Source: Halarcobacter sp.
Lineage (GTDB): Bacteria; Campylobacterota; Campylobacteria; Campylobacterales; Arcobacteraceae
Reading direction: 5' to 3'
Assembly: GCA_963676565.1 (NCBI GenBank)
Contig: OY781089.1
Coordinates: 1,952,001 to 2,016,000 of the forward strand
Length of the DNA: 64,000 nt
Part shown: piece after piece, positions 26,040 to 61,100 of the stretch
Layout: every line of letters begins with the position of its first letter
How positions within the stretch are numbered: position 1 is the first letter of the stretch
Made by a program: the position numbers and the translations under genes
The notes under the pieces: model-generated
Database searches by the model: none
Seen by the model: the letters and a program-made list of their open reading frames with translations, nothing else
What the model was told of the DNA's origin: nothing

Positions 26040-26049
26040 AAGAGTTAAA

Positions 26050-31306: not shown

Positions 31307-31316
31307 GGAGTTGTAG

Positions 31317-31931: not shown

Positions 31932-31946
31932 TAAGGTAGATAGAGA

Positions 31947-32846
31947 ATGAAAACGAAATATATAGTTTTAACTCTATTGACACTATCAGTATTAGCCTTT
32001 GGAGCTAATGCAGATAGCGCAATATGGGGGAAAGACTTAGTACCCAACATTTTAGGTTATGATAAAGAGGGTTCATTGCATCTTGGACCTTTATTTACAC
32101 TTTTACAAGGTAAATATTTTTCAATTGCATTTTTAGCGATTTTGTTTGGTGTACCTGCAGTTTTCGCTATACACTATTTTATTATTGGACCTAAAATATT
32201 TTCTCATGATAGAAAAAAGATTAAAGTATTCAATATGTTTCATAGATTGATTCACTGGATTGCTGGATTTTCATTTTTAGTACTTATCCCAACAGGATTT
32301 GTAATGATATTTGGTTCAGTATTTGAAGGTGGAACTTTTGTTAGAATCTGTAAAGAGTTACATGCAATTTCAACAGTGTTCTTTGCTATTTCTGTTATTC
32401 CAATGACAATCATGTGGATAAGAGAGATGTTACCAACAATGGACGATGTAAAATGGATGATGATTCTAGGTGGATACTTAAGTAAAGTAAAAAGACCAAT
32501 TCCTGCAGGTAAATTTAATGCAGGTCAAAAAATGTGGTTTTGGGTTTGTACATTTGGTGGGATTTTAATGATTCTAACTGGTGCAGCAATGTATTTTCAG
32601 GACTTCACTCTTCCTGTGCTTGCTACATATGGTATAACACAAATCGATTTTTTAAGAGCATGCGCAATTATTCATAATGTAATGGGAATGGCTGTAGCAG
32701 CATTATTTTTTACTCACGTATATATGTCAATGTTTGCAATTAAAGGTGCAATTCATTCGATGATTAGTGGGTATAAAGAGGAAGAAGAGATAGAAATTCT
32801 TCACAGCTCTTATTACAAAAAGTTAAAAGAGCAAAAACAATTATAA
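31947..32846 (+). CDS. fdhC: Formate dehydrogenase gamma subunit 2
   Basis: Near-identical to 26050-26949. Confidence 0.93.
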   Translation: MKTKYIVLTLLTLSVLAFGANADSAIWGKDLVPNILGYDKEGSLHLGPLFTLLQGKYFSIAFLAILFGVPAVFAIHYFIIGPKIFSHDRKKIKVFNMFHRLIHWIAGFSFLVLIPTGFVMIFGSVFEGGTFVRICKELHAISTVFFAISVIPMTIMWIREMLPTMDDVKWMMILGGYLSKVKRPIPAGKFNAGQKMWFWVCTFGGILMILTGAAMYFQDFTLPVLATYGITQIDFLRACAIIHNVMGMAVAALFFTHVYMSMFAIKGAIHSMISGYKEEEEIEILHSSYYKKLKEQKQL

Positions 32847-43264: not shown

Positions 43265-44569
43265 TTAGTCTTCCCTTTTTTCTTTCCCTTGATAGTTTCT
43301 ATTAGTGTTTTCATCTCTAATTTGAATAGAGTCTTTTCCAACAAATTGAGATTTTGATATTAGTTCAACATTATTGTTAGCAATTTTAGACATTTGTGAT
43401 GAAATTATTCTAACATTTTCTGCAACTTGTGCATTTTTTTGAGTTAGTGTATCTATTTGGGCAACGGTATTATTTATCATAGAAATACCTAATTCTTGCT
43501 CTTTTGAGGATTGAACAACCTGTTCAATTAGTGAAGTAGTACTATTTATTTTTGCACTTAGGTTTTCATAACCTAATATCATATCATCAGCAATACCTTT
43601 ACCTTCATTAGCCTTAATTGATGCAGATTCAACCAAATTTTTTATCTCTTTTGCTGCATCAGCACTTCTGTTTGCTAGATTTCTAACTTCCCCCGCTACT
43701 ACTGCAAACCCTTTTCCAGCTTCTCCTGCCGTTGCTGCTTCAACTGCTGCATTTAAAGAAAGGATATTTGTTTGAAAAGCAATTTGGTCAATCATATCTA
43801 AAGCTTCATGAACATCCTTTGTTGAATTATTAATTTCATTCATTGCTGTAACTGTTTTTGTTGCTAGAGATAAACCACTTGAAATAGAATTAGTTACTTC
43901 AGCCCCATAGTTTTCCATTTCATTTGCCATATTAGTATTATTTTTGATTGTACTTGTTATCTCTTCAATAGCTGCAGATGCTTCTTCTAATGAAGCAGCT
44001 TGTGTTGTAGTTGATTGAGATAAGTTTGATGAAATATCAAGTAAGTCAGTAGATTCTTTTTGTAAAACTAAACTTGTTCTATATGTACTTTCTAATTGTT
44101 TAGTTATCTCTTTTTTTAGAAAATTAATCCCTTGGGTCATTTTTTTAAAATCCCCACCTCTAAACATTGTTTCATCAATTTCATGTAAAAAGTTTTGTTG
44201 AGAGTATTCATTTAATATCTTTTCAATATTTGCCAATGCTTTTTGAAGCTTTTCAGACATAACATTCATTGTCTTTGCAATATAGTTAAGTTTATTATTT
44301 GAACTTTCTTTTGTAACTCTATCTTCTGTAAAACCATCTGATAGTTTTTCTGCACAAAGCATTATTTCACCATAGATAGTTAAATCTTCAGTATTTTTAC
44401 TTTGAATTAAATTGGAAATATTTAAAATCTTTTCCATAATAAGCTTATCTGTACCACTACAAGTATTATCAGATTGTTCAATTTTATTGATATCCTCTTT
44501 TATGTAATCTTCTATAGTATCTAAAGCTTTTAATATATCATTTGAGTCTTGATTATTTTTAAAAAACAT
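43265..44569 (-). CDS. Soluble methyl-accepting chemotaxis protein (no clear TM)
   Basis: [17 protein letters not shown]; co-oriented with the upstream PAS gene. Confidence 0.88.
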   Translation of the reverse strand: MFFKNNQDSNDILKALDTIEDYIKEDINKIEQSDNTCSGTDKLIMEKILNISNLIQSKNTEDLTIYGEIMLCAEKLSDGFTEDRVTKESSNNKLNYIAKTMNVMSEKLQKALANIEKILNEYSQQNFLHEIDETMFRGGDFKKMTQGINFLKKEITKQLESTYRTSLVLQKESTDLLDISSNLSQSTTTQAASLEEASAAIEEITSTIKNNTNMANEMENYGAEVTNSISSGLSLATKTVTAMNEINNSTKDVHEALDMIDQIAFQTNILSLNAAVEAATAGEAGKGFAVVAGEVRNLANRSADAAKEIKNLVESASIKANEGKGIADDMILGYENLSAKINSTTSLIEQVVQSSKEQELGISMINNTVAQIDTLTQKNAQVAENVRIISSQMSKIANNNVELISKSQFVGKDSIQIRDENTNRNYQGKEKRED

Positions 44570-44578
44570 TTTATGGCC

Positions 44579-44962
44579 TTAGTCTAAAGTTTTATACAGT
44601 TCTTCTGCATTTTTAATCTCTTCATCTGTTGGCTTTACCCTAACAGAGATATATCTTAAGTTACCATTTACATCTTTAGAAGGAAATGCCGTTGCATTTA
44701 CCCAATAATACTCACCACTTTTTGTTTTATTCTTAACAATCCCATTCCATATTTTACCAGCTTGTATAGTTTCCCACAAATCCTTAAATGCAGCCTTTGG
44801 CATATCAGGATGTCTTACGTAATTATGTGGTTGACCTATTAATTCTTCTTTTGTATATCCTGCAATTTTACAAAAATCTTCGTTCGCATAAATAATTATT
44901 CCCTTTGAATCAGTCTCAGAAACAATCATTGTTTCCTTACTAAGTTTAACTTCCCCACTCAT
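44579..44962 (-). CDS. Stand-alone Aer/CetB-like PAS protein
   Basis: IVSETDSKG.IIYAN..F...HNYVRHPDMP..F..LW...W.G.VKN. Confidence 0.88.
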   Translation of the reverse strand: MSGEVKLSKETMIVSETDSKGIIIYANEDFCKIAGYTKEELIGQPHNYVRHPDMPKAAFKDLWETIQAGKIWNGIVKNKTKSGEYYWVNATAFPSKDVNGNLRYISVRVKPTDEEIKNAEELYKTLD

Positions 44963-45123
44963 TATTTTCCCTTTCAAAAGTTAAAAATAATATAATTATC
45001 CCCAGTATACAATAAAAGTGTATCTAAAATGTCTCTTTTTTCTAAAAAGTATCATTTCGTGTGAGTATTTTGTTGCTTTTTTTACTTATATTTCATTTAT
45101 AATAAATTGGATATAATCCGCCA

Positions 45124-47322
45124 ATGAATGAGATATTAAAGAAATTAGACTTAAGTGATTATATAGATTCATTTTCTAAATTATTAGCTAGAGAAAAATC
45201 TATAATCCTAGAAGGGGATATAAACCTTCACCATAGACTTATTAGTGAATTATCAAAATTTGATTTAAAAGAACCAACAAAAGTTGCAAATCTTGACAAT
45301 GCATTGTTACATATACAAAAGCAAGGTATATTAAAAATATATGATATTTATGAGTTCATAAAAATCATTAAATATTTTAACTATTTAAAAAAGTTCAACT
45401 TTGAAGGAAAACTTGCTGAATGGATAGATAGAATTATAATTCCAACAGAGATTAACAAAATATGTGATTACTTTGACGAAAAAGAGAATTTAAGACAAGG
45501 TGTTAATGAAGATTATGATGCAATTAAAGGTGCAATTTATAATAATAAGCAAGAGATAAAACAAAGCCTTTATAAACTAATCAATAACACAAAACTAAGA
45601 AGCTATTTAGTTGATTCACAAGTTCACTATGTAAATGGTGAAGAGTGTTTATTAGTTCGTGGTGGCTTTAACCATGTTATAAAAGCAACTGTTTTAGATA
45701 GATCAAACTCTGGATTTTTTTATGTCTTACCCCATAGTGTTAGTAACTTAAAACAAAAACAAAGTGATTTAATAAATAAGCAAGAAGAGATACTTCTTAA
45801 AGTGTGTAAAGAGATAAGTTCTCTTTTTGAAAAGAATTTACTATTTTTAAAATTTATTAATAAAGAGTTTGATAGATTTGATCATTATCAAGCAAGAATA
45901 TTCTTTTCAAAAATAGGGGATAAGAATTTTATATTACCTAATAAGAAAGGTAAAAACAAACTAGTAGAGTTTAAACATCCAGCATTAAGTGATGCAAAAG
46001 CTATAAGTATAGATTTTTCAAAATCAGTAGTTATGATTACTGGGGTAAATGCTGGTGGTAAAACTATGATGTTAAAATCAATTCTATCAGCTGTATTTTT
46101 ATCAAAATACCTTTTACCATATTATACGCACCATACAAGTGAAGTTGGAACCTTTAAAGAGATTGCTGCTGTATTAGATGATCCTCAAAGTGTTAAAAAT
46201 GATATCTCAACTTTTGCAGGACGTATGGTAGAGTTTTCTAAACTATTTTCTTCAAAAAGTGCAATTGTAGGTGTAGATGAAATAGAACTAGGAACAGATT
46301 CAGATGAAGCAGCTAGCTTGTTTAAAGTTATAATAGAAGAGTTAATTCAAAAAGATATAAAAATCATCATAACAACACACCATAAAAGACTAGCTTCTCT
46401 TATGGCTTCAAATGAAAATGTAGAATTAATAGCTGCACTTTATGATGAAGAGAATCAAAAACCAACTTATGAGTTTTTACAAGGTACCATTGGAAAGTCT
46501 TATGCCTTTGAAACTGCTTCAAGATATGGAATACCACATAATGTAATTAAAAAAGCAAAAGTAGTATATGGTGAAGATAAAGATAGGTTAAATGAACTAA
46601 TAGAAAGAAGTAGTGCCTTAGAAATAGAGTATAAACAAAAGATTAAAAAACTTGAAGAAGAGCAAGAGAGATTTGAAAGATTAAATAAAAATCTAAAAGA
46701 GGCTAAAGAGAGTTTAGATGAACATATTTATGAAGAGAAATCAAAACTTCATAAAGAGTATAAAGATGCAAGAGAAGAAGCAAAGAAAGCTATTAAAGCA
46801 AAAATAGCTGTAGGGCATCAACATCTAAATGTAGCCCATGCAAAAGCTCAATCAATAAAAACTGAAAAAGTTCAAGAAAAAGTTGAACTTAAAGTAGGAG
46901 ATAGAGTTAAATATAGAAGTTCAAAGGGTGAGATTATATCTATAAAAGGGAAAAAGGCTTTTATAGAAAATGATATGGGGATGAAGATGCAAGTCTTACT
47001 TTCAGACTTACAAAGAAGTGGAAACCCACCTGAGATAAAAGCAAAACCAAAAGCTAGTGTAAATGTTCAAAGACCAGACTCTGGACATGTAAAATTAGAC
47101 CTACATGGACAAAGAGCAGATGAGGCAATAGAAAATTTAGATAAGTTTTTATCTGATGCACTAATTGCAGGCTTTGATGAGGTATTAGTTTATCATGGAA
47201 TTGGTACAGGAAAGCTATCATATGCTGTAAAACAGTTTTTAGATAAACATCCACGGGTAAAATCATATGAGGATGCCCATCCATCTTCTGGCGGCTTTGG
47301 AGCTAAAGTTATTAAACTTTAA
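45124..47322 (+). CDS. mutS2: Endonuclease MutS2
   Basis: ITGVNAGGKT, STFAG, DEIELGTD and TTH motifs; C-terminal Smr domain (LDLHG, HGIGTG). Confidence 0.93.
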   Translation: MNEILKKLDLSDYIDSFSKLLAREKSIILEGDINLHHRLISELSKFDLKEPTKVANLDNALLHIQKQGILKIYDIYEFIKIIKYFNYLKKFNFEGKLAEWIDRIIIPTEINKICDYFDEKENLRQGVNEDYDAIKGAIYNNKQEIKQSLYKLINNTKLRSYLVDSQVHYVNGEECLLVRGGFNHVIKATVLDRSNSGFFYVLPHSVSNLKQKQSDLINKQEEILLKVCKEISSLFEKNLLFLKFINKEFDRFDHYQARIFFSKIGDKNFILPNKKGKNKLVEFKHPALSDAKAISIDFSKSVVMITGVNAGGKTMMLKSILSAVFLSKYLLPYYTHHTSEVGTFKEIAAVLDDPQSVKNDISTFAGRMVEFSKLFSSKSAIVGVDEIELGTDSDEAASLFKVIIEELIQKDIKIIITTHHKRLASLMASNENVELIAALYDEENQKPTYEFLQGTIGKSYAFETASRYGIPHNVIKKAKVVYGEDKDRLNELIERSSALEIEYKQKIKKLEEEQERFERLNKNLKEAKESLDEHIYEEKSKLHKEYKDAREEAKKAIKAKIAVGHQHLNVAHAKAQSIKTEKVQEKVELKVGDRVKYRSSKGEIISIKGKKAFIENDMGMKMQVLLSDLQRSGNPPEIKAKPKASVNVQRPDSGHVKLDLHGQRADEAIENLDKFLSDALIAGFDEVLVYHGIGTGKLSYAVKQFLDKHPRVKSYEDAHPSSGGFGAKVIKL

Positions 47323-49483
47323 GATATTTTTTTCTAATCTCATCTTTACATAATGGTTTAGAAAATAAATATCCTTGTACATAATTAGCATTTATATCCT
47401 TTAGCCATTGAAGGCTTTCATTGGTTTCCACCCCTTCAATTACAATGTCACAGTTTAATCCCTGTGTCATGGAAATCATTGAAGTTACCATCTTTCTAGC
47501 TTGTTCATCTTTATCAATTCTAAAAGTAAAAGATTTGTCAACTTTTACTACATCTATTGGGAGGTTATGTAACTGTGATAATGAGGCATACCCTGTCCCA
47601 AAATCATCTAAATAGATTCTTGAACCTTTTTTTGATAATTGATTTAGTTGAAAGTTTAAACTTTCAAGATTTTCCATTGTACTTGTTTCTGTTATCTCAA
47701 AATTAAAATTTTTTAGTTGAAGTGCATGTTTCAATGCGATAGATTCAAAATTCTCTATAAAACTCTCTTTCATTAGTTGTAATACAGAAAGATTTACAGC
47801 AATTGGTAGATTCTTAAGATTATTTTCTTTGTTAAATTTATAAAAGATACAAACTTCATTGAAAATAAGTTCCCCAAGTTCTGTTATCAAACCTTCTGAT
47901 TCTGCAATTGAAATTATATTTTCAGGATTAATAAATTCCTCATCATCATTTTTTACTCTTAAAAGTGCTTCTAATGAGTTGATTTCATTATTTTTCGTAT
48001 TAAAAATTGGTTGGTAGAAAACCTCTAAATATTTTGATGGATTTTTTAATGTTTTTAATAAAATATTTTTAAAACTATCTTTTTCTAAAATATATTTTTC
48101 ATCCTCCTCTTTAAATATAGAAACTTGATTTCTTCCTGCATTTTTTGATCTATACATTGCTGAATCAGCTCTACTCATTAATTCTGCTGTAGTTGTTCCA
48201 TGATCAGGGTAAATAGATACACCAATTGATGTACCTATATTGTGTTCATTATTATTTATAAAAAAAGGTTTTCTAATCTCCTTTATTAAAGACTCTGCAA
48301 TTTTTAATATAATCTTCTCATCTTGAATTCTAGATAATATAATTACAAACTCATCTCCCCCAATCCTTGCTACAATATCATTTGTTCTAACTTTTGATAA
48401 TATTCTTTGTGCAGTTTCTTGAAGAAGTAAATCACCTTCGTGGTGTCCATATATGTCATTTACTTGTTTAAAATGATCTAAATCTAAAAATAAAACAGCA
48501 TTTTTTGTTTTTTTTCTTTTTGAGTTTTCAAGTAAATTTGAGAAATTAATATTTAAAAAATGTCTATTAACAAGTCCAGTTAATACATCATAGTGAGCTA
48601 ATCTATCTAATTCATATTGTCTTTTCTTTCTATCAGTAATATCTGAAAAAATTGCTATATAAAACATTTTTTTAGTTACAGGTTCAATAACTCTGTTTAT
48701 TTGTAACCACTCTGGAAAAATATTATTATTTTTTCTTTTGTTCCAAACCTCACCAGCCCACCAACCATGGTGTGTTATAGATTTCCAGATATCACTGTAG
48801 AAATCTTTCGTATGTCTTCCTGATTTAAGTATACTTGGAGTTTTTCCTAGTACAAAGTCTTGGGAATAACCTGTTATTTCTGTAAATGCACTGTTGACTT
48901 TTAAAATTTTAGCTTCTTCATTTGTAATTATTACACCATCTTTTAATTGATCTAATACTAAATGAGATAGATAATTAGAGCTTTGTGAACCATCAGAATC
49001 ATATGGCAAGATTACACCCATAATTAGTATACCTCTTTCATAGTTTTGAACATCTAGTTTTTTTAATGATAAACTAAAACTTTTTTGATTTTTTAATAAT
49101 AAAAAATGGAAATTCATAGATTTTTGAGAGGTGTCTTTTAGAAATGTTTGAAATTTTGAAGTATATTCCATAAAAACAGATTGATCAAGAAACGTTCTGA
49201 AGTTTTGTTCTAAAATATTAAATTTCCCATTTTCAAAAAAGTTAATAGCAGTTTCATTAAGTTTTTTAATTTTACCAAACTTATCAATTATTACTAGTAT
49301 ATTTGGCGATTGTTCAAAATAGGTACTATAATCTTTTTCTATATTTATCCCACTATATAATAAGTCATTTTCTAATATTTGACAGTCTTGTTTTTGTTTA
49401 AAAAGTTCCTGTTGTAAATCAACAATTATTTGATTTAAACTAGAAATTTGTTCTTGATATGCTCTTATTTCTTCATCAAACAT
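47312..49483 (-). CDS. Coiled-coil-PAS-PAS-GGDEF-EAL c-di-GMP enzyme
   Basis: RIGGDEF intact; EALLR and DDFGTGY intact. Confidence 0.92.
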   Translation of the reverse strand: MFDEEIRAYQEQISSLNQIIVDLQQELFKQKQDCQILENDLLYSGINIEKDYSTYFEQSPNILVIIDKFGKIKKLNETAINFFENGKFNILEQNFRTFLDQSVFMEYTSKFQTFLKDTSQKSMNFHFLLLKNQKSFSLSLKKLDVQNYERGILIMGVILPYDSDGSQSSNYLSHLVLDQLKDGVIITNEEAKILKVNSAFTEITGYSQDFVLGKTPSILKSGRHTKDFYSDIWKSITHHGWWAGEVWNKRKNNNIFPEWLQINRVIEPVTKKMFYIAIFSDITDRKKRQYELDRLAHYDVLTGLVNRHFLNINFSNLLENSKRKKTKNAVLFLDLDHFKQVNDIYGHHEGDLLLQETAQRILSKVRTNDIVARIGGDEFVIILSRIQDEKIILKIAESLIKEIRKPFFINNNEHNIGTSIGVSIYPDHGTTTAELMSRADSAMYRSKNAGRNQVSIFKEEDEKYILEKDSFKNILLKTLKNPSKYLEVFYQPIFNTKNNEINSLEALLRVKNDDEEFINPENIISIAESEGLITELGELIFNEVCIFYKFNKENNLKNLPIAVNLSVLQLMKESFIENFESIALKHALQLKNFNFEITETSTMENLESLNFQLNQLSKKGSRIYLDDFGTGYASLSQLHNLPIDVVKVDKSFTFRIDKDEQARKMVTSMISMTQGLNCDIVIEGVETNESLQWLKDINANYVQGYLFSKPLCKDEIRKKYLKV

Positions 49484-49500
49484 AATTATTTCCTATTAAA

Positions 49501-52320
49501 CTATTTAAAAAATAAAATTCTATCAGGATATAAAGGATCAGGACATTTTTCATGTTTATATTTAACAACATTTCTATTTTTATATTTATCTAAAATTGTA
49601 ATACTACTCCAACCATCACTATCGATTGTATTATTTTTAAAGATGGTATTTTCAATTTCATTTTTAGTAATATTTAAAAAAAGTTTTTCTAAACTTAATT
49701 CTTTTAACTCTCTAGCACTATAATTGAAAAGTTTTTCAGCTAAAAAGTTTGTATGAATTATATTAGAATTTGTATCTACACAAATTATTGGATATTTAGA
49801 ATAAGAACCTAATAGTCCTATAAATTTTTCATGTAATTGATCTGATAAGTAAGTTCTATCTTTTACTTTTTCAAAAAATAGTATTGCACCTACAACCTCT
49901 TTATTATCAAATTTATAAGGAACAATTCTAAGGTCATGATTAATTCTTCTACTCCTTAGATTTATTACAGATTCTTTTTCTAATTCTATTACATTTAAAA
50001 GTTCTGTTCTTAGATTTGGAATATCCATGGTAAAGCCAAATGAAGTTACAACTTGTCCAATGTCATCATGGATTAGTTCAAATAATTTCCCTGCTTTATT
50101 TGTATATCTTTGAAGTCTTAATCTGTTATCAACAAATAAAATATTTTCATCTATTGAACTTAACATTGCAGATAAATCATTGTTTACTTTTCCTAATTCA
50201 AAAGATTTGACTTCTAATTCCTCATTAACCGTTGAAAGTTCTTCATTTGTTGATTGAAGTTCTTCATTAGCAGTTTGAAGCTCTTCATTTGCAGATTGAA
50301 GTTCCTCATTTGCAGATTGAAGTTCTTCATTTGTTGATTGAAGTTCCTCATTACTTGTTTCCAAATCTTGAATAGAACTTTGTAATCTTTCTCTAAAAAT
50401 CTCAATCTCTTGTTTTAATTTATTTTTACTTAGTTCATCAATATCTTTATGATTAACACTAATTGCTGATTCATCAGATAATTCTATTTCTAAAAAAGCA
50501 ATAACAAACAAATCATCTTCTGATGGAGTAATTTCCTCTATAATAATATAAAGTATTCTTTTTTTATCTTTAGAATTGAAGAATAAAGCTTGAGAAGCAG
50601 CATGCTTCTCTTTTTTTGCCTGTTGTAAAAGAGACCTTATATCAATTTTTAAATCATCTTTTGCCATATTAAAAATATTTGTTTCTACTCTTCCTTGCGG
50701 AAATTCAAGGTACTCATTGATATTTCCTTTTATATGTAACATTTCACCCAATGAATTTATTACAATAGAAGCAGGCAAAACTCTATCATTTAAGATTTTA
50801 TTCATTTTATCTTCTAAGCTAACTTCTTCATCTAATTTCATTTTGGTTTTAGTACTAATAGTTTTTTGATTTTTTACTAGTTTTTTTGCACCTTTTACAT
50901 AGTCCAAATTAAAAGATATATCTGTTTTTTTTCTTTTAAATAGTTGGGATTTATTTGTGGAAACATCATATAGTTCAGGAGCTGTGTTTACAGCAGATTC
51001 AGATTTTCCTAAAAACAGATAACTATTTGGTCTTAGGGAATAGTGAAAAGTTTGAAAAATCTTTTTTTGTGTTTCATTGTTAAAGTATATTAGAACATTT
51101 CTACAACTAATTAAGTCTATATTAGAAAAAGGTGGATCCATAATTACGTTTTGTTTTGCAAAAACAACATGATCCCTAAGGGATTTATTTACTATATAAG
51201 AGTTATCATTTTCTTGAAAGTATCTTTTTAACAAAGCTTGATTAATCTCTTTTACTTGAGATGCAGAATATACAGCTTTTCTAGCTAAATTAAGCGCATA
51301 ATCATCAATATCTGTTGCAAATATTTGAAATGAGACAGGTTTATCTTGTTTTCTTTTTGCTTCTTCAAATAATATTGCAATAGAATAAGCTTCAGCTCCA
51401 TTTGCACAACCCGTAACCCAAACTCTAATAGGATCTTTTAAATCTCTTTTTTTAACAATATTATCGACTACTATTTTTAGGTCGTCAAATGCTTCTTTAT
51501 CCCTAAAAAAGTCTGTAACTGAGATAAGTAAGTCTTTAAATAAGGCTTCAACTTCAGAAGAAGAACTATTTAAGAGATTAATATAATCTTCTAAAGCAAC
51601 TATTTTATTAACCACCATTCTTCTTTGAATTCTTCTTTGAATTGTTTTTAATTTATAGCCACTAAAATCATATGAGGTTTGATCAAATATTGATTGAAAT
51701 ATTTTTTCTAAATTAGTTCTTATTTTTGGTTCAGTAACTTTATATTGATACTCTTCCGTTGTATTTATTAGTTTAGGAAGTTCAATTGCAATCTCATTTG
51801 CAGGAAGAATTAAATCAACAAAACCAGTTTCAATTGCAGATTTAGGCATACCAGAATATTTTGCACTTATTTCATCTTGCGCTATTGTTATTCCACCAGC
51901 TGCTTTTATAGCTGTGATTCCAACAGAACCATCACTTCCAGTACCAGATAAAACTATACCTATACTATAATCTTTTAATTCATCCGCCATAGAGCTAAAT
52001 AGTTCATTTATTGAAGGTTTTGGCCCAATTAATGCTGCAGGAGATAATTTTATCTCTTCATCCTTAATTGAAGCATTATGTCCAGGAGCAATAATATAAA
52101 TTGAACCTTTTTCAGGTTTAATATCTTTTTCTACCATATGAATAGGTAGATTTGTAACCCGTGCTAATAAATCTTTTAGAATAGTTGGATGGGTTGGGTC
52201 AAGATGTTGTGCAATTATATAAATTGCATCACTAAACTCTAGGTTTTTTAAAAACTCTTTTATTGCATCTAGTCCCCCAGCACTAGCACCGATTCCTATC
52301 CAGAAATTTTTCTTTTTCAT
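49501..52320 (-). CDS. CheB methylesterase-CheR methyltransferase fusion with coiled coil and PAS domains
   Basis: GIGASAGG, QHL and SGTGSDG (CheB triad); RVWVTGC, ATDID and SCRNVLIYF (CheR); (LQSxNEE)n. Confidence 0.92.
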   Translation of the reverse strand: MKKKNFWIGIGASAGGLDAIKEFLKNLEFSDAIYIIAQHLDPTHPTILKDLLARVTNLPIHMVEKDIKPEKGSIYIIAPGHNASIKDEEIKLSPAALIGPKPSINELFSSMADELKDYSIGIVLSGTGSDGSVGITAIKAAGGITIAQDEISAKYSGMPKSAIETGFVDLILPANEIAIELPKLINTTEEYQYKVTEPKIRTNLEKIFQSIFDQTSYDFSGYKLKTIQRRIQRRMVVNKIVALEDYINLLNSSSSEVEALFKDLLISVTDFFRDKEAFDDLKIVVDNIVKKRDLKDPIRVWVTGCANGAEAYSIAILFEEAKRKQDKPVSFQIFATDIDDYALNLARKAVYSASQVKEINQALLKRYFQENDNSYIVNKSLRDHVVFAKQNVIMDPPFSNIDLISCRNVLIYFNNETQKKIFQTFHYSLRPNSYLFLGKSESAVNTAPELYDVSTNKSQLFKRKKTDISFNLDYVKGAKKLVKNQKTISTKTKMKLDEEVSLEDKMNKILNDRVLPASIVINSLGEMLHIKGNINEYLEFPQGRVETNIFNMAKDDLKIDIRSLLQQAKKEKHAASQALFFNSKDKKRILYIIIEEITPSEDDLFVIAFLEIELSDESAISVNHKDIDELSKNKLKQEIEIFRERLQSSIQDLETSNEELQSTNEELQSANEELQSANEELQTANEELQSTNEELSTVNEELEVKSFELGKVNNDLSAMLSSIDENILFVDNRLRLQRYTNKAGKLFELIHDDIGQVVTSFGFTMDIPNLRTELLNVIELEKESVINLRSRRINHDLRIVPYKFDNKEVVGAILFFEKVKDRTYLSDQLHEKFIGLLGSYSKYPIICVDTNSNIIHTNFLAEKLFNYSARELKELSLEKLFLNITKNEIENTIFKNNTIDSDGWSSITILDKYKNRNVVKYKHEKCPDPLYPDRILFFK
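50218..50352 (-). repeat. In-frame 21-bp tandem repeat encoding NEELQS[T/A] heptads
   Basis: About 6 imperfect copies of a 21-nt unit (e.g. TTCATTTGCAGATTGAAGTTC). Confidence 0.85.
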
Positions 52321-53795
52321 ACTTTCCCTTCAATAATTTTAAAAAACTGATTTGTGAACTTTAAGGCAGCTAATTCTTCTTGACTATGAAATTTATTACA
52401 AAACCCATGTTTTTCTTCAACAAATCTTTCAAATGACCTTCTAGGAGATAATCTAAAAACTCCTTTATGTTCTACAATAGATTTATTAGGATTTCCTGCC
52501 CAAGTTAGTTTTTCAGAAATTTCATTTCTAAACCAGTAAGATCTTAGTGCTGAGTTTTGAGATTCTAGTTTGATCCCTAAAACTCCAACTGGTCCTATAA
52601 AGTTCAAATCAAAATCTTTTGATATAGAGTTTGAAACTATTTTATTAGAATTTGAATTTAAAAAGTATTCATCTAAGTTTCTTAATGAATTGTTTTCAGG
52701 TATTGAACCTATTGCCCATATTTGAGAGTTATAAATTATAATTAAACCATCGCTGTTTAATAGTTGTAAAAAATGATTTTTATTCTCTTGTATTTGTATT
52801 TCGAAATTATTTAAATCAGAGATAGTATTTAATAAAGAGTTTATTTTATGCTCAACTAAATCTAAATAGGCAATTTTTTCTTTTGCAAAGAAGTTTTGTA
52901 AACCTAGTGAAAACTGTTGGATAAGATTAAGTATATTATTTCTTTGTAAAGGATCTATTCTTTTATATGTGAAGTTATGGCAAGCTAACAGCCCCCAAAG
53001 CTTGTTTGCAATTATAATTGGGATTGATAAAGATGTTATAACTCCCATATTTTTTAAATATTCAATATGAACGGGGGAAACACTTCTTATATCTGAAAAA
53101 GTTAAATCTGGTTTACTCCCATCTATTGTTAAGATATCTATATCTTTTGAGTTTACATCAGCAATTAATCTGTAGGGATTAATCATATACATATCCCTTG
53201 CAATTTTAGGAATATCTGATGCAGGGAACATCAATCCTAGATAACTATCAGCACCTTCATTTGAAACTTTTTCTGCAATCACTTTTCCTGACCAATCATC
53301 TTGAAATTGATATATTAAAATTCTGTCAAATTTCAGTTGATTATCTATAAGTTCTAAAAATGTATTTTTATAGTCATTGTATTCAATATCATTACAAGGA
53401 GCAATTGTAAGTTCTGTATTGTACTTAATAGTTTTACTTAAAAATTCTTCTTTAATCTTTTGAATATCTATAACTATTGAATTATCAATTTTAGATAACT
53501 TAAGTAAAAGTTTTTCTTTTTTTAAAGTTTTATAAAAAAAATTTACATCTTCATCATCTAATTTATATTCATCTAAAAGTTTGTAAAAATCTTTTAAGAG
53601 ATTTTTTATATTTTTTCCTAGCAAATCTTTACAATCAATTGATAAAAAATCTTTGATATTTTCAGAAACGTGGCTTATTATAAAACTTTCACTATCAAAT
53701 ACTAAAAGTGAGGAAAAAGATTGAATCATTCCAGTTAAGTGAAGTTGCTCTTGTTCACATGTTTTTAATAATTCATCAATATCATAGTTTTGCAT
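52317..53795 (-). CDS. Bacteriophytochrome photosensory core only (PAS-GAF-PHY), no kinase or other output domain
   Basis: Biliverdin-attachment Cys13 (TCEQEQLHLTGMIQ), PASDIP, RSVSPVH..YL, LWGLLACH, WFR, WAGNP, LSPRRSF; stop follows PHY. Confidence 0.9.
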   Translation of the reverse strand: MQNYDIDELLKTCEQEQLHLTGMIQSFSSLLVFDSESFIISHVSENIKDFLSIDCKDLLGKNIKNLLKDFYKLLDEYKLDDEDVNFFYKTLKKEKLLLKLSKIDNSIVIDIQKIKEEFLSKTIKYNTELTIAPCNDIEYNDYKNTFLELIDNQLKFDRILIYQFQDDWSGKVIAEKVSNEGADSYLGLMFPASDIPKIARDMYMINPYRLIADVNSKDIDILTIDGSKPDLTFSDIRSVSPVHIEYLKNMGVITSLSIPIIIANKLWGLLACHNFTYKRIDPLQRNNILNLIQQFSLGLQNFFAKEKIAYLDLVEHKINSLLNTISDLNNFEIQIQENKNHFLQLLNSDGLIIIYNSQIWAIGSIPENNSLRNLDEYFLNSNSNKIVSNSISKDFDLNFIGPVGVLGIKLESQNSALRSYWFRNEISEKLTWAGNPNKSIVEHKGVFRLSPRRSFERFVEEKHGFCNKFHSQEELAALKFTNQFFKIIEGKV

Positions 53796-53800
53796 AATAT

Positions 53801-54385
53801 CTAGCTTTCAAAGTGTTTTTTTAGTACTATAAATGTTTCTGTGGCACCTAAAGTTGTTTCATATTTATCAATTTCTACTTCATCTAACCACTTTGAAAAA
53901 CTTAACCATTTATTCATGGTATCCTGTTTATATGATTGATAATATCTATTTGGTACATTGTTCTTAAAGTTTTTTTCTATCATTTTAACTATTTGCATCC
54001 CACCCATAGTTGAACCCTCTAATACATAAAGTGCACCAACTACAGAAGCGAAATTATTTAATGTTTTAAATTCTATATTTTTTTTAATATTTAAATTGTC
54101 AATTTCTACATTTAAATAGTTTAAATCTTCAATTAACCATTTCGTTTTTTCAAGTCTTTTTTCTATATCTTCAAGCTTTTTTTCCACAAATTCATTTTTA
54201 TGGTTTTTAATAATTAATTCGATTATACTAAAAAAAGAATAAAGTTTTTTTAATAAAAAAATATACTCCTCTTCAGACAAATTATTTTTTTTGATTTTTT
54301 CGAATAAATAGAATTCTTCTAGCCATTCATGGAGTGGATAAGTAGCATTTTTTAGATGGTTTTTCAGTGAATCGTTATTTTTCAT
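53801..54385 (-). CDS. bphO: Biliverdin-producing heme oxygenase (BphO-type)
   Basis: LKNAT...H heme ligand, GALYVLEGSTMGG; directly upstream of the phytochrome. Confidence 0.88.
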   Translation of the reverse strand: MKNNDSLKNHLKNATYPLHEWLEEFYLFEKIKKNNLSEEEYIFLLKKLYSFFSIIELIIKNHKNEFVEKKLEDIEKRLEKTKWLIEDLNYLNVEIDNLNIKKNIEFKTLNNFASVVGALYVLEGSTMGGMQIVKMIEKNFKNNVPNRYYQSYKQDTMNKWLSFSKWLDEVEIDKYETTLGATETFIVLKKHFES

Positions 54386-54458
54386 AAATTAATATCTCCC
54401 CTAGTAATAATTTATTTTATCTTATTATTAATAAATTAATATAATTTTTATATACGGT

Positions 54459-56831
54459 TTATATATTTTTTGGATTTTCAAAAGGGGGACTAAATAAGTA
54501 TCCTTGTGAGTAATCAATTCCTAACTCTTGTACCTTTTTTAAGATTGATTCATTTTCAACAAATTCTGCAATTGTTTTCATCCCTAAATCTTTCGCAAAA
54601 TTCACTATATTTTTACAAACTTTTTCACTAAGAATATCTTTATCAATATTTTTTATTAAAGAACCATCTATTTTTATAAAATCTGCTTTTAGTTTTAAAA
54701 GATATTCAAAATTACTATAACCAGTACCAAAATCATCAATAGCAATTCTACACCCAAAAGATTTAACTTTTTTAATAAAATTTAAAACAATTTCAAAGTT
54801 TTCAATTGATTCAGATTCAACTATCTCAAAAACAACTCTTTTACCAACTTGTGAGTCTGATAGTATTTTATAAATAAACTCTTTTATCTCAACATTTAAA
54901 ATATCTTCAATTGTTAAATTTATAGAAAAATTATATTCAAGGTCTTTGAATTTTTCTATGGTTTTTTCTATCATAATTTTTGTAATTTGATTGTAAAATT
55001 TAGTTTTCTTTGAAATTTCTAGAAAAAAGTAGGGTGATATTAATTTATCTTTTTTCCTCATCCTAACTAAAGCTTCATATTTTTCAACCTTTAAAGTTTT
55101 GTTATTTATAATTGCTTGATATACTGGTAGAATATTGTCTTTTTCTATTGCATCTTTAATGGATTTAGTCCATTTTATATTATTTTCATACTCTTTGTCT
55201 AAAGATATATCATCTTTGTAAACTAAGATATCTTTATTGTGTTGCTTTGCAATTTTAATAGTCATTGTTGCTGTGTTTAAAATTCTATTTTTTTCTTCAA
55301 AGGAGATTCCAATGGTAAAATTTAAATTGATAAAGTCTTCACTATCAATATAAAAATTTTCTTTTTTTAGTTGGGTGTTTATAGAGTTAATTTTTTGCAA
55401 AAAAAGATCAGTACTTATATCTTCATAAAAAATTACAAATTCATCACTATGTAAACGATAAATGTTACAACTATTTGAATCTTTTATAATGTTTAGTTTT
55501 TCTGCAAATCTTTTAAGTATCTTGTCACCAATTATATATCCATAAAAATCATTTATTTCAGAAAACCTATCAATATTTATAATTGCTAATGCAGGCTTAG
55601 TGCTTTTGTTTATATCATTTATAAGTTTATATCTATTTCCTAAGTTTGTTAGAATATCAGTATTAACAATAGTATCTAATCTTTCTTGTTGTTCAATAGT
55701 TTTAGTTATATCATGTCTTATTCCAATATATTCATTTATATTGTTTTTATCATCAAGAATAGGGACTATTGTAATATCTACCCAATAATAATTTCCATCT
55801 TTAGTGATATTTTTTAATGTTTTTTTCCAAACTCTTTTTGATCTAATCGTTGTCCACAACTCTTCAAAAATAGATTTTGGATTATCTGGATGTCTAATAA
55901 TATTATGGGGTTTACCAATTAATTCCTCTTTTGTATAGCCACTTATTTTACATAAGTTATCATTTACATAAGTAATATTACCTGCTAAGTCTGACTTTGA
56001 AACGATACTTGATTTATCCATCGCAATTTTGTAACTTTCAAATAAAGATATAGTCCTTTTTAATTCATATTCTATCTCTTTTATTTGACTTATATCTTGA
56101 ACTGTCCCAACAGACCTATATGGATTACCATCTTTGTCAAAGTAATTATCACATTTTTCTTCAACATATTTTATTCTTCCATCTTTCATTTTTAATCTAT
56201 GTTGAATAGCATAAGGTTTTTTTGTTTTAAGTGAATTTAAATATGCATTATTTACCATCTCTTTATCTTCTGGATGAATTGCATTTAAAAAATATTCATA
56301 AGAAGGTTCAAATTTAGATTTATCTATTTCGAAAATCTTATATATTTGATCAGACCAAAAGAGATTATTATTGATAATGTCATACTCCCAGTTACCAATA
56401 TTTGCTAACCTTTGAGCTGTATTCATTTTTTTTGTTATTTCAACTTCTCTTGTGACATCTTTTTGAATACCTAAAAAAAACTGTAGTTTATTGTTTTCGT
56501 CAAAAATTGGAGTTATTGTTAATTCACAGTAAACAATTTCACCATTTTTTTTCTGATTTTTAACAATAGTAGTTATTGATTTTTCTTCTTTTATTGCCTT
56601 TCTTATTTCATCTATTGATTTTTGTTCTTTATTACTTGTTTGTAGGAATCTACAGTTTTTACCCAAAACTTCATCCTCTTTATAATCAAACATTTTATAA
56701 AAACTTTTATTTGCGTAAATAATAGGATTATCGTCTTTTTTAGGATCAGTAATTAGTATTCCGTTTACTGCTTGGTCTATGATTTTTGAGAGAAAAATAT
56801 TTAAGTTTTCATCTAAATAATCTTCTCCCAT
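54459..56831 (-). CDS. LOV-PAS-PAS-degenerate GGDEF-EAL phosphodiesterase (blue-light sensor)
   Basis: DNPIIYAN...GKNCRFLQ...GIQKDVT LOV signature; GGDEF replaced by HSDEF; EALVR and DDFGTGY intact. Confidence 0.88.
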   Translation of the reverse strand: MGEDYLDENLNIFLSKIIDQAVNGILITDPKKDDNPIIYANKSFYKMFDYKEDEVLGKNCRFLQTSNKEQKSIDEIRKAIKEEKSITTIVKNQKKNGEIVYCELTITPIFDENNKLQFFLGIQKDVTREVEITKKMNTAQRLANIGNWEYDIINNNLFWSDQIYKIFEIDKSKFEPSYEYFLNAIHPEDKEMVNNAYLNSLKTKKPYAIQHRLKMKDGRIKYVEEKCDNYFDKDGNPYRSVGTVQDISQIKEIEYELKRTISLFESYKIAMDKSSIVSKSDLAGNITYVNDNLCKISGYTKEELIGKPHNIIRHPDNPKSIFEELWTTIRSKRVWKKTLKNITKDGNYYWVDITIVPILDDKNNINEYIGIRHDITKTIEQQERLDTIVNTDILTNLGNRYKLINDINKSTKPALAIINIDRFSEINDFYGYIIGDKILKRFAEKLNIIKDSNSCNIYRLHSDEFVIFYEDISTDLFLQKINSINTQLKKENFYIDSEDFINLNFTIGISFEEKNRILNTATMTIKIAKQHNKDILVYKDDISLDKEYENNIKWTKSIKDAIEKDNILPVYQAIINNKTLKVEKYEALVRMRKKDKLISPYFFLEISKKTKFYNQITKIMIEKTIEKFKDLEYNFSINLTIEDILNVEIKEFIYKILSDSQVGKRVVFEIVESESIENFEIVLNFIKKVKSFGCRIAIDDFGTGYSNFEYLLKLKADFIKIDGSLIKNIDKDILSEKVCKNIVNFAKDLGMKTIAEFVENESILKKVQELGIDYSQGYLFSPPFENPKNI

Positions 56832-57092
56832 AAATATCCTTTTAAATTTTATAATTTTGTTACATTATTATAACATAACTTTTTTATAATAATCAAGTTG
56901 AAAAAACTTTTTCACAGACAAAATTATTTTATATAAAAAGTATTATAAGTTTCTTATTTTTAGGGATTTTTTTTTAAATAAATTATTATTATAAAGAGTG
57001 ATTGTTTTTTTGTATATTTTATTTAAGACTAGGGATAAAATAGTAATTTTTTGAAATTATAAACTTTCTAGTTAAGAAAAGACTAGTTTAAA

Positions 57093-57479
57093 CTAGCCTT
57101 TTAGTGATTTAATCATCTCTTCCATGATTACATTTGCTTGTTCATTTGGCGCTTCTAAAAAGTTTACTACAAACATATCTTCTAGTTCACAAACACCTAT
57201 TGCTCTTGGTCTTACAGCTAAAACCTCAGGAGTTGGTATCTCTTTACCAAAACAAAATATAATATTTTTAGCATCTTTAATATCTTCTCTTATAACTCCA
57301 TCTACTCTCTTTGTTTGTGAAAACTGATCAAATGTTGAAATATAAGCTATCACAGGATGTGCATCAATTTTGTCTTTTAGCGCTGCTAATATCTCATTCA
57401 CATTTTTGAATTTTAATTCATCTTTTGAAAATTCAATTTCAAAAATGTGGTATTTATCTTTAAAAGTTTTTTGTTTCAT
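57093..57479 (-). CDS. Conserved hypothetical protein (DUF6858-like)
   Basis: IFCFG..IP.PEVLAVRPRAIGV; family assignment recalled, not verified. Confidence 0.6.
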   Translation of the reverse strand: MKQKTFKDKYHIFEIEFSKDELKFKNVNEILAALKDKIDAHPVIAYISTFDQFSQTKRVDGVIREDIKDAKNIIFCFGKEIPTPEVLAVRPRAIGVCELEDMFVVNFLEAPNEQANVIMEEMIKSLKG

Positions 57480-57492
57480 TTAATGTTCCTTT

Positions 57493-58041
57493 TTATTTTT
57501 TTAATGTTATAAACGATTTAATGACACAATCCATTCTTTCAGGGATATCGCTAGTATCCATATTCATATAATCAGTTTGTATCTTATAAATTAGTTTATT
57601 GTCAAGTTTAAATTCAAAGACTAGGTACCCAGCATAAAGTTTACATTTTGTTCCTTTTTTTCCCTTGTCTTCTTTATCATTTTCAAGTATGTAATAATCA
57701 ATTAAAAGTTTTTTATCCTTTAGTTTTTTGTCTTTTACATACTTATTTATAGTTTCATTTAAATATTCATTTGCTTTCTCTTCACATATATGTTTATCAA
57801 TTTGTGATTCCATATATACAGATTTTTCGATTCTAGATTTAATAATATAATTAGAAGTTTCAAGAAGCTCAATAGCCTCTTGTGCAAGTTGTTTATTCGA
57901 TATTTTTTCAAAGGTTGTAGTTTTTGTTTGACAGGTTAGTCTTTTTTCTTTTTTTATGTGGTCATTTGATTCTTTAGTTAGTAAACCATAAGAGAAAAAT
58001 CCAACAATAAAAATTAATATAAAAATAAAAAATTTGTTCAT
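57493..58041 (-). CDS. Hypothetical membrane-anchored protein
   Basis: N-terminal TM segment, 182 aa ORF with RBS. Confidence 0.7.
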   Translation of the reverse strand: MNKFFIFILIFIVGFFSYGLLTKESNDHIKKEKRLTCQTKTTTFEKISNKQLAQEAIELLETSNYIIKSRIEKSVYMESQIDKHICEEKANEYLNETINKYVKDKKLKDKKLLIDYYILENDKEDKGKKGTKCKLYAGYLVFEFKLDNKLIYKIQTDYMNMDTSDIPERMDCVIKSFITLKK

Positions 58042-58135
58042 AGTATTCCCTTTTGTTAAGTTAAATAGAATACTAACGTAATAATTATTATAAGTAAATT
58101 AAATAAATGTATTATAATTTATAGTTATAATACAT

Positions 58136-61100
58136 TTATTTTGTAGAGACATCGAAGTTAAATACTGCCCATTTGTTTTTCTCATCTTCTTGTTTTGTAA
58201 TGTCATCTATAATAATAGATTCTTTTGGAACTTTTTTCATGTTAAATAAGTAATTTTTAATATTTTCTATTCTTTTTTTAGTAATTGAAATCAATTCTTT
58301 TTCTGAAACATTTTGTTTAGAAGCAAGGAAATCTCTTAAGTATTCTGTATACGCATCAATTTGAAAATACTCTTTTCCATTTTTATCTTTTTTATAATAT
58401 GTTTCTTTTATTTTATCTAAGTCTTTTACATCTTTTAACTCATTATAAAACTCTTCTAAAGCTTCTTTATAATCATCCCCTTCAGGTATCTTTTCCATTC
58501 TTTTTAATACAAATTGTTCAAATTTTATATCTTGAAGAGCTTTTTTATCTTTTTGAGGATTATAAATTGGTTTTATCTTTATTGCAAGTCTAGGTTTTTT
58601 TGATAAAAGTTTTGCAATACTATCTAAGGTCTCTTTTTCAGAAGGTACAATATCACTTTTACCAAACTCAAAATCCATACTTTTTATCTTATCTTCATCA
58701 ATTCCTAACATTGCCCCAAGTAAGGCAAATGGTGAAGTGATTGCTTTAACTATTAAGTTTGTGAATACTTTCCAAACAATAGGTGCAATTGAAAATTGAG
58801 GATCATCAACATTACCTGAAATAGGTAAATCAATATCTATAATTCCATCTGAATCTTCTAGTAATGCAATAGCTAGTTCTAATGGAAGATTAACTGCGTC
58901 TGGACTTTCTACTTTTTCACCCAATTTAATATCACTAATGATAACTGAGTTTTGGGCACTTAAATCAGATTTTTTGATATTATATTTTAAATCTAGATTT
59001 AATTTACCACTATCGATTTTTCTTCCTATAAATTTACCTGAATATGGTGTGAAATTTTTAATTGCTATATTTTTAAATAATAAATTTGTATCTGTTAATA
59101 ATTTAATATCATTAATATCTACAGTTCCAACAATTTTTGTATAACCATATTTATCAACTTTACCTTCCAATTGGAGTTTTGTTGGTTTTGAATTACTTGA
59201 GTTTAATCTTGAAAAACTACCTTGTAGTTCATTTATATTTGTTTTAAATGGTATTGGAAGATTTTTATCTTCAAAAGTCATCTTCATATTTTTTATTTTT
59301 ACTGGACCTACATCAAATTTAAAATCACTTTTTTCTTTTGAAGCTTTTTTAACTGTTTCTTCTTCAACTTTTTTGTCTTGTGATTTTTCTTTTTTCCCTA
59401 GTGTAATTGATACATAGGGTTTATTTATATCTGAAGATTGAACTTTTAAATTATTGTTAGCAAAAGAGATTTTATTTACATTTATGTTAATATTTTTTGC
59501 AAGAATATCAGTTTTTGCTTTTTTATCTTTTATATTTGTATTTGGATTATATAAATTTAAACTAGAAATTGAAATTGCACCTTTATTACTAATTAGATCA
59601 TTCAATTTCAAACTGATGTTTCTTGCAACAATATTTTGATCATTTTTATTATCAACAAAATAAATTGAAGGCTTAGCTAATCTAATTGTTTTAATATTTA
59701 GTTTTTCATCTTTTAGTGTTGTATTTAAAGCACTTAGATTTAAGCTTTTTGTTGTGATATTCATTTTACTTTTTTTATCATTGAATTTTATAGTTGGAAT
59801 ACTTAATTTTGTTTCATCAAGAGCTATATCATTTCCATTTAGGCTAAAGTTTTTAGCGGTGATAGTATTTGAGTTAGCTACAACATTCATAGAACTTTTC
59901 TTATCTAAAAAATAAATAGATGGGTTTGTTAGTTTTATATTTGAGATAGTTGTGCTTTCATTTTCTTTTTTGATATTAGCGATATTTAAATCAGTTTTTT
60001 TACTAAATATTGTGGTTTTATTTTTTAAGTCTTCAAAATCTAAAGAACTATTTTTTATATTTAATTCATCAAGTAAGATATTTGAATTTGAAAAAGAGAA
60101 ATTATTTGCATCTATTTCTAACTCTTTATTTAAAATTGATAAATTGTTGTTTTTATTGTCAATTGTAATATTAGGTTTTGACAAAAGTAAATTGGCTAGT
60201 GTAATATCACTACCATCAACTTTTAAATCTTTTAAAGTAATATTTAAATCATCTGTTTTTGTAAAAAGTTTGCTTGATAAATCATCAAATTTTATATTTG
60301 ATTCTTTTAAATCAAAGTTTTTTAAAGAGATAGTCCATTTGTTACTTTCTTCTTGTTTTTGTGAAGCATTTGTTTCAATTTCAGTATTTATAGGCTCTTC
60401 AACTTTTTCTTCATTATTTGCAATTAAATTTGCAAAATTAATTTCACCTTTTTCATCTACTATTGCATTAAGATTTAGTTGATTTAAAACTATCGCTTCT
60501 ATATCAATATTGTTTTTTGGATATTGAAGATTTATATTATCTATTGCAAAATTTTCTAAAGAAGTTAGTGTTTTTTCATCTTTTGATATATTAAGTTTAT
60601 TTAATGCTAAATAACCATCATTTAAAATGACACTCAACTTATTTTCTGTATCAACTTTATAACCAATTTTTAAATCAATAAAAGTCTCTTCACTTAAATC
60701 AAAGTTTACTAAATCTTTTTTGTAGTTTAAAAACTGTTTTGGTCTAATATTTTTTAGCTCTACATTTCCATACATTTTAAATGGAGCAAGTCTTAAACCT
60801 CCGTTTATTTCTAACTCACTATTTTGATTGATTAACATTCTTAATGAGTGTGAAGCTAAAATATTTCTAAATGTACCCATATCATAAAATGTATAATCAA
60901 ATTTACTAATATTTAATTTATATGGTTCATCATCTTTATTTAATTTTGTGAAGTTAATAGAAGCATTATCTAAAATAGTTCTATATATTTGGAATTTTAT
61001 ATCTGAACTAGTTGTTTTTGTTTCCTCTTTAGTTTTTTCCTCTTTCTTTTCTTTTAAAAGTTTTTGTAGGTTAAAGGTTCCATCTTCATATTCAATAATA

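Follow-up and report, generated by a model that had tools for sequence, protein, structure and literature searches.

An output-less bacteriophytochrome lineage beside MAC1-type CheB-CheR proteins, found as a four-gene accessory cassette in Halarcobacter sp.

A 64,000-nucleotide stretch of a Halarcobacter sp. genome (GenBank assembly GCA_963676565.1, contig OY781089.1, positions 1,952,001 to 2,016,000; hereafter the window) carries a four-gene cassette that encodes a heme oxygenase, a bacteriophytochrome without an output domain, and the two halves of a protein of the MAC1 (methyl-accepting coiled-coil) type, one with CheB and CheR domains and one with the GGDEF and EAL domains of cyclic di-GMP (c-di-GMP) turnover (Table 1). 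We consider that the phytochrome probably acts in trans on the MAC1-type unit and so sets c-di-GMP turnover. The original prediction, which had grouped these genes with a neighbouring LOV gene as a two-colour light-sensing block, was sound in its description of the five genes: their order, the distances between these five minus-strand open reading frames (ORFs; 73, 5, -4, and 17 bp), and the 11 bp that the 723-aa gene shares with mutS2 were all reproduced, the Pfam matches agree with the domain make-up, including the degenerate GGDEF of the LOV gene, and both photoreceptors keep their chromophore cysteines (LOV Cys60, phytochrome Cys13).

Table 1. Features of the block, in window positions
Feature	Position	Strand	Length	Evidence
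LOV-PAS-PAS-GGDEF (degenerate)-EAL	54459..56831	-	790 aa	Pfam PAS x3-GGDEF-EAL
Heme oxygenase, BphO-like	53801..54385	-	194 aa	Pfam PF01126, E 8e-14; His19, EGSTMGG
Output-less bacteriophytochrome, PAS-GAF-PHY only	52317..53795	-	492 aa	Pfam PAS_2-GAF-PHY
CheB-CheR-linker domain-coiled coil-PAS-PAS, MAC1-type front half	49501..52320	-	939 aa	Pfam CheB-CheR_N-CheR-PAS_10
Candidate methyl-accepting coiled coil, five EELQxxN heptads (residues 658-692)	50245..50349	-
Coiled coil-PAS-PAS-GGDEF-EAL, output half	47312..49483	-	723 aa	Pfam PAS-GGDEF-EAL
Four-gene accessory cassette (heme oxygenase, phytochrome, CheB-CheR-coiled coil, PAS-GGDEF-EAL)	47321..54460	-		blastn limits and contig forks
Promoter-like site, extended -10 (TGnTATAAT)	56867..56896	-		36 bp upstream of LOV gene; weak evidence

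The PAS-GAF-PHY core of the phytochrome has the N-terminal Cys, DIP Asp, His, and PRxSF tongue of bacteriophytochromes, and Cys13, Asp194, His243, and PRRSF are invariant in 108 of 108 aligned relatives. The chain ends straight after PHY at residue 492, with no kinase and no cyclase, and nothing follows PHY that corresponds to the fused output of canonical BphP kinases or of PadC- and BphG1-type proteins; the bacteriophytochrome label originally given to it holds for the chromophore residues, but the absence of an output domain had been overlooked, and with it the pairing to a MAC1-type protein, which is the less usual trait of the block. Its predicted structure (pLDDT 91.8) terminates in a helix (471-488), and the top Foldseek matches are phytochrome photosensory modules, with IsPadC (PDB 5LLW) first. 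The heme oxygenase gene adjoining it is the only match of its kind in the host genome (G000). A second strain carries the entire block on one 15.2-kb contig (run X2) with 67 substitutions and 0 gaps over 12 kb, and the reading frames and the early stop of the phytochrome are therefore no assembly error. The consensus phytochrome tail, KFRxxLLRWL, was considered as a CheR-tether pentapeptide and rejected, as it does not fit the pattern of such tethers.

On the evidence of database matches and trees, the output-less form is a lineage and not gene damage. The first 107 database matches are all at most 509 aa long, with relatives named Arcobacter, Rheinheimera, Alteromonas, Skermanella, Magnetospira, and Methylococcales, and the top 60 matches of a length-free search, whose profile was built from output-less proteins, are at most 530 aa. 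A first tree of 228 sequences has a clade of 89 (SH 0.999), all 89 of them output-less. The clade is kept (SH-aLRT 98.3) in a second tree, of 84 sequences with the top long matches included, which has one fused basal member, P0167, a 1,321-aa phytochrome-PASx3-GGDEF-EAL protein whose placement inside the clade is supported at 34.8; four high-scoring long cyanobacterial matches fall outside. The trees are fast approximations with midpoint roots, and two near duplicates (L106 and L190) and a fragment (L108) were left out of the counts. Residues typical of the clade concentrate at the N-terminus and in PHY. The best of the 40 plasmid matches listed is 34.6% identical, and none of them is annotated as output-less. 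Eight loci (L032, L033, L071, L117, L124, L186, L194, and L283) hold basal output-less phytochromes with no CheB-CheR nearby, several of them in purple phototrophs. Elsewhere, precomputed Pfam annotations list phytochrome-heme oxygenase fusions of ~910-935 aa (P0425, P0428, P0432, P0461, and P0439), one of them also with GGDEF-EAL.

The 939-aa protein combines CheB (Pfam E 8e-49) and CheR (E 2e-53) with PAS_10; CheB Ser13, His39, and Asp130 and the CheR motifs are kept, and there is no receiver domain. Relatives of ~950 aa occur in Thiomicrospira, Marinospirillum, and Desulfuromonas, and those of the Thiomicrospira and Marinospirillum type are close to the window's protein. This fusion, together with a methyl-accepting-like coiled coil of five EELQxxN heptads, is that of the MAC1 proteins, for which the original description is reportedly that of Wuichet and Zhulin in 2010. 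Similar heptads are present in 60 of the 62 CheB-CheR ORFs read, the two exceptions stopping before the coil. We take the heptads to resemble chemoreceptor methylation sites and infer that their glutamates are methylated. The MAC1 output domain is not in the same chain here; it lies on the next gene and is fused in most homologous loci. That gene product, of 723 aa, matches GGDEF (Pfam E 1e-50) and EAL (E 1e-64) and has both catalytic motifs intact (GGDEF, EALLR, and DDFGTGYAS), with no RxxD site. Residues 2-759 of the 939-aa protein match the front of a 1,502-aa fusion in L107 at 37%, and residues 172-718 of the 723-aa protein match its back at 38%; by alignment, the two genes together are what is elsewhere one CheB-CheR-PAS-GGDEF-EAL protein of ~1,500 aa, here split. 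Four domain trees place the partners in the window, G092, and L026 in a distinct split-type lineage apart from the fused type, and a common C-terminal origin of the two types was rejected because these trees separate them. A predicted complex between residues 1-795 of the CheB-CheR protein and residues 290-492 of the phytochrome scored 0.00; run with no controls, it is not evidence either way.

The phytochrome and the CheB-CheR gene are neighbours far beyond this genome. Alignment scans of genome contigs returned at least 602 and at least 599 stretches, of which 80 loci each were kept, and the counts drawn from them are samples; a single-sequence scan of genome contigs gave no match. Among the 160 sampled loci, CheB or CheR lies no more than 4 kb away in 11 of the 25 with an output-less phytochrome and in 5 of the 130 with a fused one (4/8 versus 3/72 where both flanks reach at least 5 kb). 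In the core subclade (93.6), 19 of 24 loci stand beside a CheB-CheR-coiled-coil gene; the remaining five have less than 1.5 kb of upstream sequence before the contig end, and two of these end in GGDEF-EAL. A prior prediction was tested on two evenly drawn sets, one of 400 Gammaproteobacteria and the other of 251 genomes from a single family; nine of ten output-less matches there came directly after CheB-CheR, eight of the pairs having a single ~1,500-aa CheB-CheR-coil-PAS-GGDEF-EAL gene. When CheB-CheR matches were ranked in one Gammaproteobacterial family, the top 7 of 68 were the seven that adjoin output-less phytochromes (the query is among the seven). Equal-sized contigs imply three further co-locations (P0005/P0258, P0006/P0259, and P0007/P0261). 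In the genus Magnetospirillum, 5 of 21 genomes encode core-clade proteins (496 aa, 34-35% to that of the window), and four of the five genes follow a 1,510-aa CheB-CheR-PAS-GGDEF-EAL gene, the genomes being close kin. These proteins carry Cys14, Arg240, and His246, the residues reported for the Magnetospirillum magneticum phytochrome MmBphP; MmBphP is then probably a clade member, and photoswitching has probably already been shown for one member.

The partner genes tell a similar story. A CheB-CheR clade of 16 (SH 0.996) has 15 members beside output-less phytochromes and one beside a kinase-type phytochrome, and all 41 CheB-CheR proteins without a phytochrome fall outside it. Distances in the sensor tree correlate with those in the partner tree (rho 0.85, Mantel p 0.0002 for 14 pairs; rho 0.51 for 20 pairs). 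The sensor clade is also found beside other MAC1 lineages, namely those of the window, G092, and L026, of L028, and of L030, where a core-clade sensor is paired with a CheB-CheR histidine kinase and GGDEF-EAL is absent; at L066, a sensor from outside the clade that has lost its output stands beside a CheB-CheR kinase as well. The pairing spans Campylobacterota and Alpha-, Beta-, and Gammaproteobacteria. As judged from these neighbourhoods, nothing speaks more strongly for function than the retention of one kind of neighbour when partners are exchanged; it points to the CheB-CheR-coil core, the element that the several MAC1 lineages share.

Two related gene arrangements were seen alongside. Five Bacteroidota loci (L047, L073, L082, L119, and L150) hold an operon in which a CheB-CheR kinase (~1,215 aa) is followed by a phytochrome kinase, a response regulator-like gene, and a heme oxygenase, possibly a precursor state of the output-less pairing. 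In several Arcobacteraceae, output-less membrane Cache-PAS sensors are encoded directly upstream of CheB-CheR kinase genes (L229:289-1716, L230:6506-7933), which suggests that MAC1 proteins accept other free-standing sensors too.

The following mechanism would account for the cassette. The heme oxygenase very probably makes biliverdin, which would be attached to phytochrome Cys13, as the residues are present and the chemistry is that of the family. The phytochrome, having no output domain, is quite likely to be functionally coupled in trans to the neighbouring MAC1-type unit, and we lean slightly towards direct contact between the two. The CheB-CheR-coiled coil-PAS and coiled coil-PAS-GGDEF-EAL chains would associate as one unit. 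Chances seem even that the receiver-less CheR and CheB add methyl groups to, and remove them from, the EELQxxN glutamates and in this way tune or reset the signal, a step that would need no chemoreceptor, CheA, or phospho-CheB. The bifunctional GGDEF-EAL half would then shift c-di-GMP between red and far-red light, and the LOV gene would be an independent blue-light input to the same c-di-GMP pool. Extended to the whole clade, and put forward tentatively, these phytochromes could be free-standing light receptors for MAC1 proteins, whose light-dependent binding would shift self-methylation and yield an adapting, chemoreceptor-free sensor that controls c-di-GMP or kinase output.

Several observations weigh against such a coupling. 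All support for the pairing is genomic, and the agreement between sensor and partner trees is expected from joint inheritance of neighbours alone. An eleventh output-less locus, from another search, does not follow CheB-CheR, and in the basal grade of the clade only one of eight loci has CheB-CheR, with none at L283 either. In the Gammaproteobacterial family above, 61 of the 68 MAC1-type genes have no output-less phytochrome nearby, and since most are without one, the MAC1 unit works without a phytochrome. No phytochrome-CheB/CheR fusion was seen among the 120 listed of 227 long matches, which is weak evidence. The Magnetospirillum locus L279 retains the PAS-GGDEF-EAL half alone beside its sensor, and P0167, the sole fused clade member found, joins a phytochrome to PAS-GGDEF-EAL, which suggests the cyclase half as the target.

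These last two loci lead to the alternative that fares best, in which the phytochrome docks directly on the PAS-GGDEF-EAL half as a relic of a split protein and CheB-CheR is a separate input to the same enzyme. P0167 falls at the clade base, the sensor gene adjoins the EAL end in most loci, and the basal loci L194 and L124 have GGDEF-EAL genes with no CheB-CheR nearby. However, the placement of P0167 has only the low support given above, L030 pairs a core member, and L066 a sensor from outside the clade, with a CheB-CheR kinase and without any GGDEF-EAL, and in the window and G092 the sensor adjoins CheB-CheR and not the cyclase. We regard docking on the cyclase half as unlikely and retain trans action on the MAC1-type unit.

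The history of the locus bears on a further alternative, that of the original prediction, in which the five genes are one co-transcribed two-colour circuit that integrates LOV and phytochrome signals by design. We compared 184 Arcobacteraceae genomes (the family) and a sample of 401 Campylobacterota genomes (the phylum sample). In G106, a close relative whose mutS2 is 97% identical, blastn covers only window positions 44001-47330 and 54462-59000: the LOV gene (88%) is kept at the same locus without the other four genes, and different cargo lies between. G092 has the four cassette genes (51-75%) without the LOV gene, at another locus; its blastn match is confined to window positions 47321-54364 (72.6%), and its own mutS2 directly adjoins DUF6858. 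G104 and G105 carry further different cargo in the mutS2-DUF6858 interval, and in G086 the LOV gene is present and PHY is without a match, the assembly breaking at this spot. The block had been proposed to be an accessory insertion; the interval is indeed a site of variable cargo, but the cassette consists of four genes and excludes LOV. In G106, the site is occupied by transposase-like fragments and a cold-shock-like ORF, both named by eye (L018:11300-13480).

Run X3 agrees with these limits. Its contigs fork at 47190-47219 and 54490-54518, at both cassette ends, and contig depth is 11-15 over 47190-54518 versus 29-31 over the mutS2 and LOV-gene flanks, which suggests that strains with and without the cassette coexist, contig depth giving no cell share. 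Of the 184 family genomes, eight have a PHY domain, in the short form only in G000 and G092; among the other six, the open frame is 765-1,398 aa long in five and is broken off by a contig end in one. In the phylum sample, PHY was found in two genomes, one of them G000, and the output-less form in one. The window-type CheB-CheR (75%; all others at most 43%) occurs in the same two family genomes as the output-less sensor. From these comparisons, the four-gene cassette is an insert with mutS2 on one side and, on the other, a resident gene for a LOV phosphodiesterase that has a separate history.

A two-colour circuit would fit the shared strand, the 73-bp gap with no terminator-like site seen between the LOV and heme oxygenase genes, the c-di-GMP enzymes at the end of both arms, and the second strain, which carries all five genes. 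Against this, LOV occurs alone in G106 and the four genes alone in G092, no true LOV gene was seen beside any other output-less phytochrome locus fetched, and the depth step of run X3 is suggestive. A shared second messenger is also unspecific, because 49 GGDEF-like and 10 EAL-like motifs are matched across this genome. The five genes are thus not co-conserved, and because each unit is found without the other, the circuit is unsupported and in our judgement improbable; the side-by-side arrangement of LOV and phytochrome is most likely a recent juxtaposition.

It is just as improbable that the phytochrome has its target elsewhere or serves mainly as a bilin store, with MAC1 adjacency due to joint transfer or shared regulation: basal clade members do persist without CheB-CheR and the cassette is mobile and patchy (2/184 family and 1/401 phylum-sample genomes), but the pairing recurs across four lineages with gaps of a few bases and persists where one MAC1 lineage has replaced another as the partner, and the residues of the photocycle do not vary, the PHY tongue motif included.

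The LOV gene product is probably a blue-light phosphodiesterase. Its LOV domain has the GKNCRFLQ motif with Cys60 plus the signalling Gln123, its GGDEF motif is degenerate (HSDEF), and its EAL looks active. The best solved match of the LOV domain is YtvA (E 3e-27); the flavin residues Asn41, Arg61, Gln64, Arg77, and Asn92 are kept, and Cys102 (window 56526-56528) stands in the alignment where YtvA has a second flavin-binding strand Asn. Cys102 is common to the orthologues in G086 and G106, 14 of 15 other LOV domains read in the family have Asn at this position, and the change may alter the rate of the photocycle. Over residues 208-783, the protein shares 54% identity with a paralogue from its own genome that has no LOV domain. 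LOV is not rare in the family: 35 of 184 genomes have a match, and of the 30 loci read, 18 carry NC[RK]FLQ. A common placement of LOV genes ahead of MAC1 genes there was rejected, as most of these are PAS domains without the Cys; the 'LOV' genes next to the fused phytochromes of G179 and G068 are of the same kind. At L245:1453-1893 (G141:C71), the gene for a free-standing LOV protein of 146 aa, Cys motif included, ends ~60 bp before a CheB-CheR fusion gene, and G096 and G097 have LOV genes within ~8 kb of theirs; a blue-light counterpart of the sensor/CheB-CheR pairing may exist.

The host genome is 99.97% complete, and the nearest named matches are from Arcobacter. It has no photosynthetic reaction-centre match and two photolyase-family matches, and the original description of a non-phototrophic member of the Campylobacterota in which blue and red photoreceptors, both apparently intact, are linked to c-di-GMP enzymes stands. 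The genome also has five HD-GYP-like motif matches besides the GGDEF- and EAL-like ones, yet no PilZ match, and the role in motility or biofilm that the original prediction put forward is conjectural. The cassette genes have 24-27% GC versus 28.4% for the genome, the three long genes lying at percentiles 22-37 of the gene distribution; a foreign composition was rejected because these values fall inside that distribution. The promoter scan gave no excess overall (65 sites versus 74 +/- 10 in shuffles). Pfam finds no chemoreceptor, CheA, or CheW among the five genes, which are therefore no Wsp/ACF-type chemosensory system; a chemoreceptor gene at 43265-44569 is part of the conserved flank, outside the block. 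This soluble chemoreceptor follows a stand-alone PAS gene (44579-44977) in a split Aer-like pair that is kept in relatives. Farther away, window positions 22608-26949 and 28475-32846 hold tandem four-gene sets (186/752/193/299 versus 186/749/204/299 aa), apparently a duplicated operon.

Both parts of the pairing are known, and the pairing itself is widespread and apparently undescribed. We found no description of output-less phytochromes paired with MAC1 proteins, and no paper on a phytochrome in Arcobacter, in the full-text literature, from which most subscription journals are missing (for the pairing, supplements were also outside the search). The accessible parts of PMC9321776 mention neither phytochromes nor MAC proteins, those of PMC6532209 do not mention CheB/CheR, and those of PMC8846402, PMC8396549, and PMC4844311 do not describe the pairing. 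New in the window are the split partner, the change of partner from one MAC1 lineage to another, and the sharp cassette limits. If the proposed coupling is right, it would give the MAC class its first defined input, across at least four proteobacterial-type lineages and with a sensor movable between MAC1 lineages. MAC proteins are common, yet unstudied partly for want of a known input; a partner that red and far-red light can switch would be a clean on/off handle for their self-methylation and adaptation, and the split form would let each half be assayed alone. The pairing would further account for the route by which MmBphP, itself output-less, acts on motility, and a natural phytochrome core that binds its partner by light would be useful for near-infrared optogenetics. 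For the Campylobacterota, with rare phytochromes and fairly common LOV proteins, the gain is modest.

Compared with known systems, the window's LOV protein shares the photoactive Cys motif and signalling Gln with YtvA and LOV-GGDEF-EAL enzymes and differs in the Asn-to-Cys change at 102 and the degenerate GGDEF, which makes it an ordinary new member of the bacterial LOV proteins. IsPadC and Rhodobacter sphaeroides BphG1 likewise link red light to c-di-GMP. IsPadC holds sensor and cyclase in a single chain with a coiled-coil linker, and BphG1 is also said to be a single chain of sensor and c-di-GMP enzyme, whereas the window's sensor stops after PHY and is accompanied by methylation enzymes. 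Signalling by light-dependent partner binding is described for a bacteriophytochrome in the accessible text on RpBphP1-PpsR2 of Rhodopseudomonas palustris (PMC8707292); according to the same text, RpBphP1 has extra C-terminal parts (HOS motif) and a repressor as its target, whereas the window's phytochrome has nothing after PHY. MmBphP, listed with PAS, GAF, and PHY only in a review table (PMC12941744), lacks an output domain like the window's phytochrome, and the title of its study as cited there (Chen et al. 2020, FEMS Microbiol Lett 367:fnaa142) says that it affects phototactic behaviour. The Magnetospirillum partner is one 1,510-aa gene in four of five genomes, whereas in the window, from an Arcobacteraceae host, it is split. 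The MAC1 class, as presented in the accessible parts of its sources, was defined from genomes (PMC6943060; bioRxiv 10.1101/2022.05.07.491037), has a MiST profile (PMC6943060), and in 2022 was still experimentally uncharacterised (bioRxiv 10.1101/2022.05.07.491037). Like its members, the 939-aa protein has CheB and CheR fused to a coiled coil with glutamate pairs; unlike them, it leaves the GGDEF-EAL output to a second gene and has a dedicated photoreceptor encoded next to it.

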